DNA from: a virus
Lineage: Duplodnaviria; Heunggongvirae; Uroviricota; Caudoviricetes
Virus record (IMG/VR): IMGVR_UViG_2541047938_000006
Direction: 5' to 3' (one strand)
Length of the DNA stretch: 64,000 nucleotides
Position 1 is the first letter of the stretch; each line of letters opens with the position of its first letter. Shown in pieces: positions 38,501-50,500 of this stretch. The position numbers were made by a program.

Positions 38501-41500
38501 AACAAGCCATTACCTGGTGGTGGATGGTTTTCATAGGCAGTTACTAGGTAGAAGAACAGTTACTGGAAAACGCCTGAAAGGCTGGCTACCAGTAACCTGT
38601 ATTAATCCAGACCGAAAGGGACAAACCTCACGTATTGCCGCGACTATCCGACATAACAGAGCCAGGGGGAAACACCAGATAACCTCAATGTCTGATATTG
38701 TCAGAGATCTTTCACGTCTTGGCTGGACTGATGAACGTATCGGAACAGAACTGGGGATGGACCAGGATGAAGTTCTGAGGTTAAAGCAGATTAGCGGGCT
38801 AACGGAGTTATTTCAGCAGGCAGATTTCAGCCCTGCATGGACTGTTACATAAAGTTAGGTTAGGCCTGTGGAGCCGGGGAATCGGAATTAAACATCTTCC
38901 CTCCCCGGTAAATACAAATAAGGGCTGAACATCATCCCGACTACCTCAGATCACCTAATAATATATCAAGATTATTTTGCGCATTAATGCTATTCGCCAT
39001 TACTGTTGCTGCTTCTGGCAACTTTCCAAGAGCAATAAATATATTCTTAAGGCTGATTGGAATTGATGAACCATGCGGATCGCGCCACTCACCGCAAATT
39101 CTGTGAGTTTCATCACAAAGCCTGAACGCATCCCAACCTCCATATTGACCAAAAATTATGTCCATTGACTCTATTTCTGCGGGCGATAACTCCCCCAGCT
39201 CATCAACAGAAGAAAATGTACGCCACATTTCAACCTTATGATCCGCTACATCAGATATCCATGATTCCCACGGACTGTACTCGTTTTCACTTCCATCCTT
39301 AACCAAAGAATATGTCTGCGATAAAACGGGTCCTTTGTTCATAGAGAAATAATGATCACCACTAATGGGAAAACCATACAACTCCATTGCTTTGCGGTCA
39401 GAGAGATACATCAGCTTAATGAAACGCATAGATCCGCCATGTTTTTTCAGCAAATACGCTGCCATTTACGCAACTTTTTCTTCATTAAACATAAATCGGC
39501 TCTCTGTCTCACATGAAATACTCTTTCTGACTATATGTTAATAGCTCCGGTTATTACAGGTTAATGTGTGTTTATTTCTTAATCAGCCCCGCACTTCCGT
39601 ACGGGGCCATTTCTGTTAATCCACTCCCACTTTTTTGTTGTACTCGCGGTTAAAGCGATCCACGGCAACCTTCATATCCCGCTCTACCGATTTCACCATC
39701 GCCGCCTGCTGCGCCAGACTGAGAGAACTGTCGGCATAAATGGCATCGCGCTGTTTGCGCAAATCCTTCAGTCTCTTCCGGGTATCCTGCATAAGCCCGT
39801 TCATCAACAATTTTCCGTTGTTCTCGTCAATGAACGCCGTTCTTTCTGCACCGGTCAGACTCTTCAGCTCTGCGTGATACTGCGCAACCTCTGTCATCCG
39901 GTCGTACATCTTCTGCTGGTCTGCATACGGCATCACCTCACCCGAAATTTTCCCCAGGAAGGGCACCTGCTGCTCCGGTATATCAATACCGTTCAGCGAT
40001 TTCACCGCCGCATCTGTGGTTTTGGAAATGAAGCGCCCTGTCCCTCCGGAGATATAGTCAATCCAGAATTTCAGCGATTCCGGTGTGATATCCACCGCGC
40101 CGGGACGATACTGGCTGCCACCTGAGAACGCATTCAGCCAGGATGCAAACGCCTTGTACGCCTCAGGCGTTGAACGTCTGCCCAGTTGGCTGTCCGGTTT
40201 CGGTGTGCCAAATGGCATGTTCTCCTGGTAAATCTGCGCCCCCATGAAGTTTTCATTCATGGCAAGGTTCGCAAACGGACGCAGAATGGTCGGCGCTGCA
40301 TTTTTCAGCAATGCCCCGGACAGTGTTTCCGACGTTTCACTGCCCACAGGACTGAATGCCCCCAGGATACCACCGACAACATTACCGGCAGCACGTGAAG
40401 CAGTCAGGTCGCCCGCTGCCACACCTTCAGCAGTATGCCCGAGCAGGAAGAAAACGTTGTACCCGTAAGGCAGAGGAATACTCCAGTACTCTCCGGCCTT
40501 GCCCCCGAACACCGATTTCATAATGACGAGGTTACGCTCTTTCACATGAGACGGCACCTTGTCATACCAGTTAACCCCGTCATCATCCTCCCCCGCAACA
40601 CTGCGGTTAAGCGAGCCAAGCAGATAACCCGCTCCCACAGCTGCAAGCGCGATTTTCTGCGGTACATTGAGATTCTTCCAGCGAAGGCGCTCCGGTAACG
40701 GCCCGTCGCCATTAAGATGTCCGAGCGTTCTCACCAGGTTTGCGGTCCCCTGAATGCTGGCGTTGGCAAACATATACAGCGAGTTCATCAGCGCTCCCTG
40801 CTCACCACGACGGTTAAAGTTCACCGTCATGTTTTTGGCAAGAGATGCCGCCTGCTGGCGTGACAAACCGGCATCACGGGCGTGTTTATAGGCAGAAAGA
40901 CGCAGAGCGTTTTCAACCGCGCCGTTGGCATCCTCGACCAGGTTCAGGAACGAATGCCATGCACCGATACTCTGGCCTTTCCATCCTCCCTTCGCCAGCG
41001 ATACAAGGCGATCCATTTCCTTCTGCTGGCCTTCAAGGTCACCCATGTTAAACCAGCCGGTTTTACCTCCATCCTCAACAAACTCTTTCCACACCTTCTG
41101 CCACTGCGCACCGTTGCCCGTGAGGGTTTTACCACGCAGACTGGCGTATACGGCAGACATGGCAGACCGGCTGTCTTTCACCACAGCCAGGGCGGATAAG
41201 TTATCCAGCCCTTTCAGTTTACCGTCGCTCCTTCCCTGCTCAGCCTTCAGGTTCATCACCGCCGTCTGCACGTCACGGATGAAGTTACTGACCAGAAATT
41301 CCGGGTTATACGACGTGTTCACCGTTGCCAGGAAACGGTTAACTTTCCCCAGCGTACGGATTACGGCGTTACTGGTTTCCGGCCCCATGTTCTTCATCGC
41401 ACGCATCAGGCGCGGGTCATGGAGTTTGATGTAGTAAGTTTTGCCGTCCTTTTTGGTGGTGAAGTAGCGATCCGCCATCATTGCCATAGGCACCGGACGT

Positions 41501-47500: not shown

Positions 47501-50500
47501 ACAGCACCCGGCGACATCTGATCTGTCAGCCATTCATCCGAGGCTTTGGCACCATCACTGACTGCCTTGCCTGTGGCCTTCAGACCTTTACCGACAGTAT
47601 CAGTCACCGCGTTTTTCCCTGTTCCATCGGGAATGTTTTTAATCGCATCTCCAACAGAAGGTGGTGCGCCCAGTTCCTTTTGCGTGGAGGAAGGCGGCAT
47701 GTAAACATCCGTCATGAAAGACGACAACCCGGCAAGCGTTTTTACAGGATTATTTACAAGTGCATCACCGAGTCCACGGGCCATTTCCCCTGTTCCCCGG
47801 ACGGACTGGGCGAAACCTTTACCCATTGTTGGCAATACATCGCCCAGGCTGAACGACGTGCTGTGATCAACAGCGTTCTCCGGGTTGTTGAAAAAATCCT
47901 GCCAGTAATTTTCTCCCGGCTGCTTAATGTTCAGACTGCTGCGGTTCTGGTTACCCAATTGCGCTTCAGGGCGCTGCTCATCTGAAAAAGCCATACAGAC
48001 TCCAGTAAAAAAAGCCCGACACGATGGTCGGGCGTAAGTGAACGAGATTAACGGTGAGTGCGTTACTGCCGCGTATTTTTACTTCATCCAGCCTTTGATC
48101 TTCTCGGCAGATGCGGAAGCGCTATAATCCAGCGCCTTTTCATGCTCTGCCTTTTTATCCCTGAGGTGATTCTGGTAATAAATTTCCACCTCCTTTTCAC
48201 GACCAGGTTCCAGCAAAGCAGGCATATTGGCGGCAGTCGCTTTTACAAACTCCTGTTTAACCGGATCGCCCGCCGCCCACGTCTGCCACTTCTGTAAAAG
48301 CTGTTGGGTTTTCTGTTGCTGAATTTTCTGTTGATGCGGTTGTGAACCAGTCGCAGCATAATATTCATCCACCGCAGCCTGTGCATTACCGCCATTCTTG
48401 ATCGCGTCCGCCGCTACGTTGCTGGCCCCCTTCTGAAGCTCTTTCAGAGAAAGTCCCTGCTGCTTCGGCATAAAATAACCATAATTTTTCGATATCTCTG
48501 CAAATTTGCTGCGATCCCTGACCTGAGCGATAGCCTTATCAACGGGTATCGCCAGCACGGTTTGATCATCAGGGTGCGCACTGCCGTATTCTGTTACAGG
48601 TTTATGCGCGGTGGAGCCATCGCTGTATGTGAGATCAAGGCCAATAAGTACGTACCCTTCCTGCTGCGCCGGTACGATACTGCCAATCCTGGCCTCTTTT
48701 ATCGTTTTTTCCCCGGTTGAATCAGTCATGCCAATACGCTGTTGTAGTTCCGGGGCAAACACGCCGGAAAGCACATCGAGATTTTCCGGGGTATTCAGCG
48801 AAGCAATCGCCCTGTCCGGCTTATCATCAAAGATTTTCTGCAGGTTGTTCACGGCCTGACCCGCTTTCGCAGCATAGCCTACCGTTGACATCATCTTAAG
48901 CGGATTGGCGTCCGATAATTTACCGAACAGATGAGAAGCCGCATCATGGTCACCCGCATCAATCGCTTTTCCCAGCGCCGCCATCACAGGCTGATCGCGC
49001 GCCAGCATATCGTTATACTCAAGCCGTCGCTGGTTGTATTTCTGCAACTGGAGTCGTTGCTGTTCCATCCCCAGCGACGCATTCCGGTAATTCTGGTTGG
49101 CGTTAAACTCCCTTTCCTGCAGTGTGTAATTGCGGTCATCAACTTTGGCTCTGTAATCAAAGTTCCGCTGATCAACGTCTTTATTATGTTCAAACTGAGA
49201 CTGCGCAAATTCAAAATCGCGCTCGTTATTTTTCTGTTGCTGAGCAAGCTGTGCTTCTCGCAAACCAAGCTCCTTACGACGGGTCATTGCCTGGTCAACA
49301 GTGCTGAATCCGGCAAGTAACCCCTGTGCAAATCCGCTCATTCACCACTCCTTAAAACAAAGAACCAGCAATGCCGCCAATTACTGCACCAGCAACAGCG
49401 CCAACAGGACCACCAACGGATGCGCCAATAGCCGCCCCCGTACCAATGCCCGTACCGATATTCTGCTTGTTCTGCGCTTTCTGCTGCGCCGCCATCTGTT
49501 TGTTCGCAGCCTCAATTTCTTCACGTCGTCGGTCTGCGTCACTTATTCCCTGTAATGCCTCACGCCGTGACTGATTCGCAATATCCAGTAAACCGTATCC
49601 CATATTTCCTCCTTACGCTGACACCAGTTGTCCGCCAACACTCAGTTGCTGTCTTGCAGGTGCAGAAGCCCCCGTCAGTATGTTCATCTGACGATCCTGC
49701 TCTGCTTCACGGATACCATTTTTCGCGCCAGCAATTGCCAGGGCATTACGTAACCCCAGCGTATTACTGTTGGGATTATCAGGTCGGTTAACGCCATATC
49801 GTGCCATCTGGTTATCCTGCGCCATCTGCGCTGTACGGAGACTGGAAGTGGCAAGGCCGCCCACCCGGGCAAGCTGTGCATTCATCAGGCTGTTGTTCTC
49901 GCCAAGGTCAGCCAGCCTTGCTACACGGGGTAAATATCTGGTGCGCCAGTCGTCGTATTGCTGGCGGGTCAGCGCTGCGGATGTCTGCCAGTCCCCCTGA
50001 GGGCGGGCTGCTCCGGTATAACCGTATCTCGCAAGTGTTTCGTATTTACCGTACTCCATAATCACAGTCTCCAGTTCTGAGCCTGATGCTGAATGGCATT
50101 AGCGCCGGTGCCAGGTGTTTTAGCACCGCCACTTCCTCCGCTACCACCAGCCTTATGCATCGCATATGCACCTACCGCACCCAAACCAGCGCCAACAAGA
50201 GAGGCTCGCCCCTGTTGTTTCGTAAACGCAGCCTGTGCGTCCGATTTAGCTTTTGCCAGACTGCTGTCTGCCAGCGAGTTAAAACTCTGTAACGCATCTG
50301 CCTTCTGACCGGAACCGAGAGCCGCAACATCCTGTAGCCCGGCAATATATTTATCTGCCTGCGATACCTGCCCCCGTGTGGTCGTGTCAATCTGCCCGAT
50401 CACCTGGTCGCTTTGATTTGCATCCATTACTGCATTAAAACGACCACTGGATGGGTCAACGCCGGACTGAGCAAGATTACCCGCCAGCTCCCTTCGCGCT

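Follow-up and report, generated by a model that had tools for sequence, protein, structure and literature searches.

The 64,000-nt window analysed here (the whole of the supplied stretch of the IMG/VR record IMGVR_UViG_2541047938_000006) encodes on its minus strand, at positions 39616–47994, a 2,792-residue protein. This is probably the giant protein carried inside the virion of a short-tailed lambdoid prophage of 933W/phi24B type; it belongs to the phage-type 'polyvalent proteins' and is proposed to be ejected at infection. The assignment draws on the integrity of the ORF, its domain map, the conservation of its active sites, its fold assignments, the C-terminal position of its largest module and its cysteine-free composition, all observed in this work, together with published studies of orthologues, which show essentiality, presence in the virion and absence from ordered capsid or tail density.

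The giant ORF is intact and closes the late operon

ORF calling and translation recovered a single frame of 2,792 codons plus stop with an ATG start, as the sequence-only reading had described in both coordinates and length; that reading left the strand unstated, and it is the minus strand. The translation contains no internal stop and the window no N, and a frame of this length is not a chance product given a probability of (61/64)^2792, or about e^-134. The ORF is matched full-length (at least 80% coverage) at 93–96% DNA identity by 186 independent phage records, and 134 complete Escherichia coli genomes cover at least 80% of the 16-kb region around it; it is therefore not an assembly artefact. 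An assembly or annotation artefact joining several genes, the case that the sequence-only reading had named as its own refutation and one in keeping with some older Stx-phage records in which several small ORFs cover the region (such as 'hypothetical protein (x4)' or '(x8)'), is refuted by the unbroken frame in the window, the phage records and the complete genomes, by the position of the extra small ORFs of phi24B on the opposite strand within the large CDS, and by mass spectrometry (MS) peptides along the whole of phi24B gp47 with most signal at the top of the gel.

In its prophage, which is inserted in ynfG, the ORF closes the late (morphogenesis) operon, behind the tail genes and a 420-aa gene. 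A terminator-like hairpin (48014–48033, minus strand) with a 7 bp stem, 6 GC pairs and a T7 tail lies approximately 20 nt upstream of the ATG, and is followed by a GGAG ribosome-binding site. Several Stx-phage records place the start 13 codons further upstream, reading through this hairpin.

The closest matches are the giant ORFs of the Stx phages 933W, Sp5/VT2-Sakai, phi24B and P13374. Amino acid identity to phi24B gp47 and to P13374 ORF78 is 93.5% over the full length, and positions 1–2793 of the PHROG 616 profile align collinearly to residues 1–2792. The comparably giant ORF that the sequence-only reading attributed to Stx-phage-type genomes thus exists as a full-length orthologue in 933W-type phages; the finding is real, was correctly read and is already known, orthologues having been characterised earlier.

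Domain organisation of the N-terminal two-thirds

Four Pfam 'large polyvalent protein' domains (LPD5, LPD1, MuF_C and LPD38) are present, all above their gathering scores. The protein thus combines at least two unrelated domains, including an LPD, in one polypeptide encoded among late prophage genes, as in the phage-type polyvalent protein class set out by Iyer, Burroughs, Anand, de Souza and Aravind in 2017 (PMC5512222). The domain-level HMM searches and structure predictions that the sequence-only reading had recommended found recognisable domains, and these, with the zincins described below, bear out its suggestion of a polyvalent protein with enzymatic modules.

All segments of the protein lie on the minus strand and are given in window coordinates. 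Residues 1–149 (47548–47994) form the most variable part, with 62–68% identity to the Stx-phage orthologues against 93.5% overall. They are followed by a conserved N-terminal domain (aa 150–440; 46675–47547, minus strand) common to the giants of Vibrio D-series phages and Aeromonas phage phiARM81mr, which contains the strongest hydrophobic segment of the protein (aa 179–207) and a weak glycine-zipper match (aa 405–432). Just two weak hydrophobic segments occur in the entire protein, so membrane insertion is not evident. Residues 441–899 (45298–46674, minus strand), delimited by composition bins, are acidic, Pro/Gln-rich and of low hydrophobicity, returned no family match in Pfam or further profile searches, and from their sequence are probably a disordered linker. 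Residues 900–1049 (44848–45297, minus strand) constitute, by alignment consensus, a conserved extension on the N-terminal side of the LPD5 unit, in which the IEDFGEEIKGAAK motif agrees with the consensus of homologues. The LPD5 domain itself (aa 1050–1199; 44398–44847, minus strand; Pfam E = 3.5e-45) was modelled as two beta-beta-beta-alpha repeats with a weak Foldseek match to the PUR-alpha fold (E 0.14, TM 0.57).

Two predicted zincin peptidase domains and a separate MuF-C domain

The sequence-only reading had noted one HExxH metallopeptidase-like motif; the motif belongs to a conserved zincin, but the count is two. Approximately 0.04 HExxH motifs are expected from the composition of the protein (39 His, 197 Glu), whereas two are present, at residues 1283 and 1550. 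Zincin domain 1 (aa 1200–1439; 43678–44397, minus strand) is conserved by both sequence and fold and contains ALAHEWFHSLDNYF (aa 1280–1293; window 44116–44157), within which HEWFHSLD occupies residues 1283–1290 (44125–44148). Conservation is the stronger evidence: residues H1283, E1284, W1285, H1287, D1290, H1262, E1374 and E1381 do not vary within a subset of 17 sequences aligned at 50–64% identity and are kept at 90% or above in a 53-sequence set reaching down to approximately 30% identity. In the model, which has the zincin fold, the HEWFH motif sits in helix 242–259, with E1374 and E1381 in helix 333–351; E1374, within the EMAARAFE helix, is the probable third zinc ligand. Pfam LPD1 (aa 1360–1439) seems not to be an independent domain but the C-terminal part of this zincin.

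A second, minimal zincin domain spans residues ~1475–1640 (43075–43572, minus strand) in the model and has a weak Peptidase_M76 match. Its HEIIH motif (aa 1550–1554; window 43333–43347) lies in model helix 502–521, and a conserved glutamate, E1606 of an 'EFLA' helix, follows approximately 52 residues later. The fold neighbours of the zincins are the protein-cleaving MtfA, lethal factor, Pro-Pro endopeptidases, Spartan/Wss1 and minigluzincins, with cell-wall peptidase families absent among these structural neighbours. Two predicted peptidase domains of lethal-factor/MtfA-like (gluzincin) type, as the models indicate, are among the details new to this analysis, together with the separate MuF-C domain, the C-terminal 913-residue unit and the near absence of cysteine described below.

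The MuF_C/PBECR domain (aa 1749–1840; 42475–42750, minus strand) scored 66.1 bits against a Pfam cut-off of 27.6. The predicted fold, spanning residues ~1690–1850, combines alpha helix with a four-stranded beta sheet and resembles RelE, BrnT and CdiA-CT RNase toxins. MuF-C is separate from the zincins and has this RelE/BECR fold, and so is not the peptidase. Homologues covering this region in the alignment numbered 14, with little diversity among them. The MuF-C of phage Mu itself is predicted to be inactive.

These assignments bear on the suggestion, made for the phi24B giant, that the peptidase cuts peptidoglycan and so clears a path through the cell wall for a trans-periplasmic conduit (bioRxiv 10.64898/2026.04.10.717836). 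A short-tailed phage must cross the wall, and no other wall-degrading domain was seen in the giant protein by Pfam, while the Bcep22-type giant has an N-terminal SLT domain. The preprint, however, assigns the peptidase to 'MuF-C', which has the RelE/BECR fold and is distinct from the zincins, and the neighbours of the zincins cleave proteins rather than cell wall. As a class, polyvalent metallopeptidase (MPTase) domains are also common in the proteins of conjugative elements, and such elements deliver proteins into the recipient cell (PMC5512222). A wall-cutting role for the HExxH domain is consequently considered unlikely.

One orthologue is an abundant virion protein, another is required for infectivity

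Sp5 ORF80 (2,793 aa) is an essential gene product, required to form infectious particles and, on laboratory hosts, both plaques and lysogens; the deletion mutant makes DNA-filled heads and zero infectious phage (PMC5155283). The phi24B orthologue, gp47, is abundant in virions but has no counterpart in the cryo-EM map, and was put forward as an ejection protein by those who described it (bioRxiv 10.64898/2026.04.10.717836), in agreement with the ejection role that the sequence-only reading had conjectured. By peptide-spectrum matches (PSMs), gp47 is the second most abundant virion protein, at approximately 23 copies per virion in a rough portal-normalised estimate. Its peptides were recovered from residue 251 to 2673, with PSMs highest in the top gel slices. 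Most gp47 was accordingly a very large species, so the virion gel data give no sign of peptidase-driven processing before infection.

The Sp5 study itself concluded that the protein acts in tail assembly (PMC5155283), which would make it an assembly factor or structural component of the tail, possibly energy-dependent, and not an internal ejected protein. The mutant also lacked tail-fibre immunolabelling, its normal-looking, DNA-filled heads being unbound by anti-tail-fibre antibody, which the authors read as a tail-assembly defect; the gene ends the block of tail genes, and a match to COG1483 (AAA+) was reported. Against this, gp47 is plentiful in the phi24B preparation that was imaged by cryo-EM, yet the resulting model explains the portal, adaptors, nozzle, needle and lateral fibres with no part assigned to it. 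No Walker A or Walker B motif and no ATPase family match was found in the giant protein (Pfam, NCBIfam and motif scan), and the AAA+ assignment was rejected. The zincin, BECR and LPD content is typical of delivered effectors, and the loss of internal proteins could secondarily destabilise tail attachment. A tail function is therefore judged rather improbable.

A C-terminal module shared by otherwise different giants

The last 913 residues (aa 1880–2792; 39619–42357, minus strand) form a mostly helical module, delimited by alignment and predicted structure, that was confidently predicted as one unit (pLDDT 87, pTM 0.85) and for which no solved structural relative was found. Pfam LPD38 covers just residues 2475–2680 (window 39955–40572). 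The module aligns at 97–99% coverage and 34–58% identity to proteins whose N-terminal parts are different or absent, and has 20,644 cluster representatives. In all of the best 150 of these, which range from 837 to 5,535 aa, it ends no more than 37 residues from the C-terminus. It occurs in Stx phages, Bcep22/GP4-type phages, marine Vibrio phages and the archaeal virus MetMV.

The same region matches PHROG 10089, 'DarB-like antirestriction', and the C-terminal ends of the 'DarB-like' giants from Bcep22, BcepIL02 and Ralstonia phages, and counter-defence roles are predicted within the polyvalent-protein framework (PMC5512222). The protein could on these grounds be an accessory effector that, like P1 DarB, shields incoming DNA from restriction without belonging to the core infection machinery. 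Yet the LPD38 module is the sole part shared with the DarB-like giants, and the methyltransferase and helicase that define DarB are absent here, while the same scan detects both in BcepIL02 gp70. In the absence of these domains (Pfam, NCBIfam) and of Walker motifs, DarB-like membership was rejected. PADLOC gave no match, and the essentiality of the Sp5 orthologue on laboratory hosts is unexpected of a pure anti-restriction accessory. A mainly anti-defence role of this kind is thus unlikely.

Tentatively, the C-terminal ~910 residues may be a delivery chassis of novel structure that has gone unrecognised; together with the small cysteine-free proteins from the upstream genes it would make up the ejection apparatus of this large podophage lineage. 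If so, any cargo fused ahead of the module would be carried into the host.

Cysteine depletion, upstream genes and a proposed mechanism

The giant protein contains no cysteine in 2,792 residues and its family five in 65,490. Cysteine is likewise absent from the giant of Vibrio phage D67, BcepIL02 gp70 and the N4 virion RNA polymerase (vRNAP), against 0.8% in neighbouring genes. The family is essentially free of cysteine, a trait it shares with the ejected N4 vRNAP; this depletion is a correlation and no test. Immediately upstream of the ORF lie four further cysteine-free genes (420, 83, 150 and 218 aa; 48079–50718, minus strand), which are homologous and syntenic in D67. The sequence-only reading had called these internal-virion-protein-like. 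This holds to the extent that purified virions contain their phi24B homologues gp48, gp50 and gp51, but the genes themselves have no annotated function. Sp5 ORF79 is also essential (PMC5155283). The four products are probably co-packaged partners of the giant protein.

For the favoured internal, ejected protein, the following sequence of events is proposed. The protein would be made late, as the product of the last morphogenesis-operon gene, and packaged as a whole ~300-kDa polypeptide in the T=9 head in roughly tens of copies, alongside the small cysteine-free proteins. At infection it would be expelled in an extended state through the portal-tail channel, possibly contributing to a conduit. 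The C-terminal helical module would be the invariant part for incorporation and/or exit, and the regions ahead of it exchangeable cargo, here LPD5, two zinc peptidase domains and a RelE/BECR-type RNase-like domain, for which RNase activity may be envisaged. Once delivered, the peptidases would most likely have the polyprotein itself or host proteins as their substrates.

Comparison with known systems

Sp5 ORF80 (ECs1242), phi24B gp47, 933W L0134 and P13374 ORF78 are the orthologous giant ORFs of Sepvirinae Stx phages; as in the present prophage, they come last among the late genes and follow the same cassette. The N-terminal ~250 residues are only 62–82% identical to these orthologues, and the prophage resides in a commensal-type E. 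coli, within ynfG; PhiR12_3, the phage most closely related to it, lacks stx.

Among the polyvalent proteins of PMC5512222 the protein finds its counterparts in zincin MPTase hub domains, PBECR/MuF-C, LPD domains and late-gene context, and zincin domain 1 fits the MPTase clade in having a His that ends strand 2 and an Asp three residues past HExxH. It differs in that LPD38, described there as one small domain of unknown function, is part of the 913-aa C-terminal unit, and LPD1 appears as the C-terminal half of the zincin and not as a domain by itself. The closest known systems of the zincins are anthrax lethal factor, MtfA and Pro-Pro endopeptidase (ATLF-like gluzincins) and CLCA_X (NF041907). 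The whole NCBIfam CLCA_X profile aligned at 152.4 bits, under the curated cut-off of 260; the protein was thus taken as related to, and not a member of, that family.

The N4 virion RNA polymerase, gp50, is a cysteine-free protein of 3,500 aa that is packaged in the T=9 head of a podovirus and enters the host together with the DNA; it has an MPTase domain (PMC5512222). The capsid protein of the present prophage is annotated as N4-gp56 family. Unlike gp50, the giant protein has no RNA polymerase domain (vRNAP Pfam matches: 0, against 4 in gp50). Its C-terminal module showed no homology to gp50 residues 2400–3500, the encapsidation region (hhalign probability 0.2%), and no N4 protein was among its sequence matches; an N4-type virion RNA polymerase was accordingly rejected.

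The role proposed for the giant protein is that of T7 gp14, gp15 and gp16 and P22 gp7, gp16 and gp20, internal head proteins of short-tailed phages that are expelled to bridge the envelope. These sets each comprise three smaller proteins, in contrast to one ~300 kDa polypeptide, and no sequence or fold resemblance to them was found. The transglycosylase domain of BcepIL02 gp70 and T7 gp16 is absent from the giant protein by Pfam.

The Bcep22 gp75, BcepIL02 gp70, JC1 gp69 and Ralstonia GP4-type giants come from podophages whose portal and capsid proteins are 933W-like, and in each the gene ends the morphogenesis module. Like the present family they are cysteine-free, and they are virion-associated by MS. 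The C-terminal module is found in these 'DarB-like' giants at 27–29% identity over 80–87%. Their cargo comprises an SLT transglycosylase, a DNA methylase, a helicase and LPD3, in place of which the giant protein, without all four, carries LPD5, two zincins and MuF-C.

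The giant gene and its start

The giant open reading frame (ORF) listed for the window occupies 39616–47994 on the minus strand and runs for 2,792 codons from an ATG start. The sequence-only reading had described a single uninterrupted 8.4-kb frame at this location, leaving its minus strand unstated, and translation bore this out, with zero internal stops and no N within the window. The frame is not an assembly artefact, since the 8.4 kb was matched at 93–96% identity in 186 phage records, each covering at least 80% of the gene, and in 134 complete E. coli genomes coverage of the surrounding 16 kb reached 80% or more. 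The matching records are short-tailed Stx phages, among them 933W, VT2-Sakai/Sp5, phi24B, P13374 and Stx2-86. Of the phage records, the closest, PhiR12_3 from ECOR13, carries no stx genes between Q and the lysis genes. The product is 93.5% identical to its orthologues phi24B gp47 and P13374 ORF78, and divergence from the orthologues is concentrated in its first ~250 residues (62–82% identity).

A GGAG ribosome-binding site is located just 5' of the ATG (47992–47994), and directly upstream lies a GC-rich, terminator-like hairpin (48033..48014) that carries a T7 tail. The start annotated 13 codons upstream (MPGHCAGFFYGVC...) in the P13374 and phi24B records corresponds to the translated hairpin (8904–8943 in comparison locus L005 and 8491–8530 in L006), so the lengths of 2,806–2,811 aa given for these proteins are probably over-extended. 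The annotated Sp5 length of 2,793 aa fits the start chosen here.

According to the annotation of the 99.8%-identical E. coli SCU-104, the prophage sits inside ynfG and its late operon ends with the giant gene, which is preceded by tail genes, lom, hok and a series of short genes annotated as hypothetical and followed by Panacea/SocA, IbrB-like, PAPS-reductase and antirepressor genes. Within the window this four-gene accessory block (36165–39465) lies at the prophage end, between the giant gene and truncated ynfG, and encodes a Panacea/SocA-domain protein (38941–39465, minus), an IbrB-like protein (38208–38852), a PAPS-reductase/IbrA-like protein with weak BrxP/DndC matches (36997–38223) and an AntA/AntB antirepressor (36165–36800). 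A 486-aa protein of trimeric-autotransporter type, carrying YadA head repeats and a YadA membrane-anchor domain, is encoded among the prophage tail-fibre genes (57191–58651, minus). Another prophage, unrelated to the first, ends next to rspB (21208–25354); comparison with the SCU-104 annotation places genes for an 835-aa exonuclease, an excisionase and a tyrosine integrase there. The ynfE gene is whole in the window (30715–33141, 808 aa) and is split by an IS66-family element in SCU-104 (L001, 9266–14142).

The giant carries two separate zincin domains

Interpretation of the giant as a polyvalent ejection protein with enzymatic modules, as proposed from the sequence, was supported by the identification of Pfam domains LPD5 (aa 1050–1199), LPD1 (aa 1360–1439), MuF_C (aa 1749–1840) and LPD38 (aa 2475–2680) together with zincin domains. 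PHROG 616 spans the full length of the protein, other PHROGs matching N-terminal, central or C-terminal parts only. The acidic, proline-rich and poorly hydrophobic composition of aa 441–899 suggests that this region is probably a linker. The HExxH-containing motif ALAHEWFHSLDNYF reported earlier is present at aa 1280–1293 (window 44116–44157), and translation revealed a second HExxH, HEIIH, at aa 1550; from the composition of the giant itself, ~0.04 such motifs are expected by chance.

The first zincin domain (aa ~1200–1440) contains twelve residues, His1262, Glu1264, His1283, Glu1284, Trp1285, His1287, Asp1290, Tyr1292, Asp1361, Glu1374, Arg1378 and Glu1381, that are invariant among 17 homologues of 50–64% identity, and its motif is at least 90% conserved in a 53-sequence set reaching down to ~30% identity. 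It is an exact fit to the phage-type MPTase clade of Iyer et al. (PMC5512222), which is marked by a conserved histidine ending strand 2 and an aspartate three residues past the HExxH. The entire NCBIfam CLCA_X profile aligned to aa 1181–1436 with a score under the family cut-off, and the sole match of the domain profile in the PDB was a weak one to anthrax lethal factor, aligned over the HExxH (E 0.21). In the AlphaFold model (pLDDT 77) HEWFH is located at the start of a helix and the invariant glutamates on a later helix, so that Pfam LPD1 appears to make up the C-terminal half of this zincin domain. The second zincin domain (aa ~1475–1640) consists of a helix, three strands, the HEIIH helix and further helices, with a conserved Glu1606 ('EFLA') on one of the latter, and has a weak Peptidase_M76 match. 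The corrected map, an addition of this work, comprises two separate putative zinc-peptidase sites and MuF-C as a RelE-like, RNase-toxin-like fold that has been mislabelled elsewhere as the peptidase. The only match of the whole giant among PDB sequences, a xylanase (E 0.6), was attributed to chance, and no PADLOC match to the defence-system libraries was returned.

Virion location and function of the giant

Earlier publications already cover the giant gene along with its essentiality, location in the virion and domain class. Mondal et al. (2016) deleted the Sp5 orthologue, ORF80/ECs1242, and obtained normal-looking, DNA-filled heads and no infectious phage; the neighbouring ORF79 was likewise essential (PMC5155283). 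The protein accounts for ~14% of the genome in phages that spread Shiga toxin genes and is essential for their infectivity. Polyvalent proteins, LPD domains, the zincin-like MPTase hub domain and the PBECR/MuF-C RNase-like domain were defined by Iyer et al. in 2017 (PMC5512222). A 2026 preprint reported gp47 to be abundant in purified phi24B virions and absent from the cryo-EM map, and proposed an encapsidated ejection protein (10.64898/2026.04.10.717836).

In the supplement of that preprint, the batch sample yielded 746 peptide-spectrum matches (PSMs) for gp47, compared with 101 portal and 1,674 capsid-protein PSMs. Normalising PSMs per residue to the portal gives a rough estimate of ~23 copies of gp47 per virion, by a calculation that departs from known stoichiometries by up to ~five-fold. 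Peptides spanning residues 251 to 2673 were all recovered with similar totals, and gel-slice counts peak in the top slices (2188, 1686, 1187, 1260, ...). Therefore the whole polypeptide is present in the virion, mostly as a very large species. Processing was assessed from the slice distribution at protein level, the peptide counts being totals over the slices.

The best-supported reading is that the giant is an essential internal virion protein that would be expelled upon infection. The invariant C-terminal module would serve incorporation and/or exit, and the region upstream would be exchangeable cargo, predicted in the present lineage to comprise LPD5 (possibly nucleic-acid-binding), two protein-cleaving zincins and a RelE-like domain. 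A role as a tail-assembly factor is less likely; ORF80 was assigned to the tail-formation genes and its mutant lost tail-fibre immunolabel (PMC5155283). This role is weakened by the absence of gp47 from the solved phi24B tail and by the lack of an ATPase motif; the AAA+ ATPase reading noted alongside it (COG1483) was rejected, the giant having neither a Walker A nor a Walker B motif and zero family matches. Within an expelled protein, the peptidase could degrade peptidoglycan, as the phi24B preprint proposed for a 'MuF-C metallopeptidase domain' (10.64898/2026.04.10.717836). This is less favoured, since enzymes that cut proteins are the structural neighbours of the zincins, and the polyvalent MPTase class is widespread in conjugative-element proteins as well (PMC5512222); self-processing or host-protein cleavage after delivery is therefore preferred. 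Since the species in virions are mostly very large, any processing would follow ejection.

A widely distributed C-terminal module

This work adds the recognition that Pfam LPD38 represents only part of a module of 913 aa (aa 1880–2792) that is always C-terminal, structurally unmatched and very widely distributed. Among cultured phages the module was found in Vibrio phages (42% identity) and in Bacteroides and Bacillus podophages, and it recurs at 27–29% identity in the 'DarB-like' giants of Ralstonia GP4-type and Burkholderia Bcep22-type phages. Methanosarcina virus MetMV (MK170447.1, 40102–42492), an archaeal virus, matches 92% of the 913 aa at 28% identity, so the module crosses the bacteria–archaea boundary. 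BcepIL02 gp70 (4,667 aa) has the domain order SLT, methylase, helicase, LPD3, LPD38. In JC1, whose portal and capsid proteins are 933W-like, the homologue is encoded by the final morphogenesis gene and is virion-associated by mass spectrometry; Vibrio phage D67 and contigs L003 and L004 likewise have the module-bearing gene as the last of their late genes.

In L003, a metagenomic phage contig, a 3,616-aa giant ORF lies six genes upstream of a separate 1,042-aa LPD38-module protein (L003, 1–3530 and 10001–13129), so cargo and module may occupy two genes in this phage. A standalone 981-aa module protein (P0146) is encoded on an Amphritea sp. contig (L002, 10001–12946), within an element of ~16 kb that also bears integrase, exonuclease and repressor genes but in which capsid or tail genes were not seen. 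This element, which may be a satellite or decayed prophage, does not fit the last-late-gene pattern of L003, L004, D67, BcepIL02 and the window. Homology of the module to the encapsidation region of the N4 virion RNA polymerase (vRNAP) was rejected (hhalign probability 0.2%, no N4 record matched).

The module could be a packaging and ejection determinant. If it suffices for packaging and delivery, this would explain the swapping of effector cargo in the phage lineage, and the module could be put to use in delivering proteins into bacteria.

A cysteine-free signature shared with a known ejected protein

The giant contains no cysteine in 2,792 residues, and the 53 family members together contain five in 65,490; cysteine averages 0.8% in other late genes of the window. 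The four genes directly upstream (48079–50718, minus; 420, 83, 150 and 218 aa) also encode no cysteine, and the fifth (133 aa) encodes three. An identical five-gene order and cysteine pattern is present ahead of the D67 giant (BLASTP E 2e-5 to 5e-15). In phi24B, the homologues gp48, gp50 and gp51 occur abundantly in virions and are missing from the cryo-EM model; gp48 was tentatively called a transcription factor, and the homologue of the 83-aa gene, a Gly-zipper 'bacteriocin', was dismissed as a contaminant (10.64898/2026.04.10.717836). We infer that the giant and the upstream cysteine-free proteins form a conserved co-packaged set that would have to cross the tail and the oxidising periplasm unfolded. 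The conserved partner cassette and the family-wide cysteine-free signature are additions of the present analysis.

Cysteine is likewise absent from the D67 giant (3,066 aa), BcepIL02 gp69 and gp70, and N4 gp50, gp51 and gp52. N4 gp50, the vRNAP, enters the cell along with the DNA (PMC5512222), and the giant family thus has its cysteine-free signature in common with a known ejected protein.
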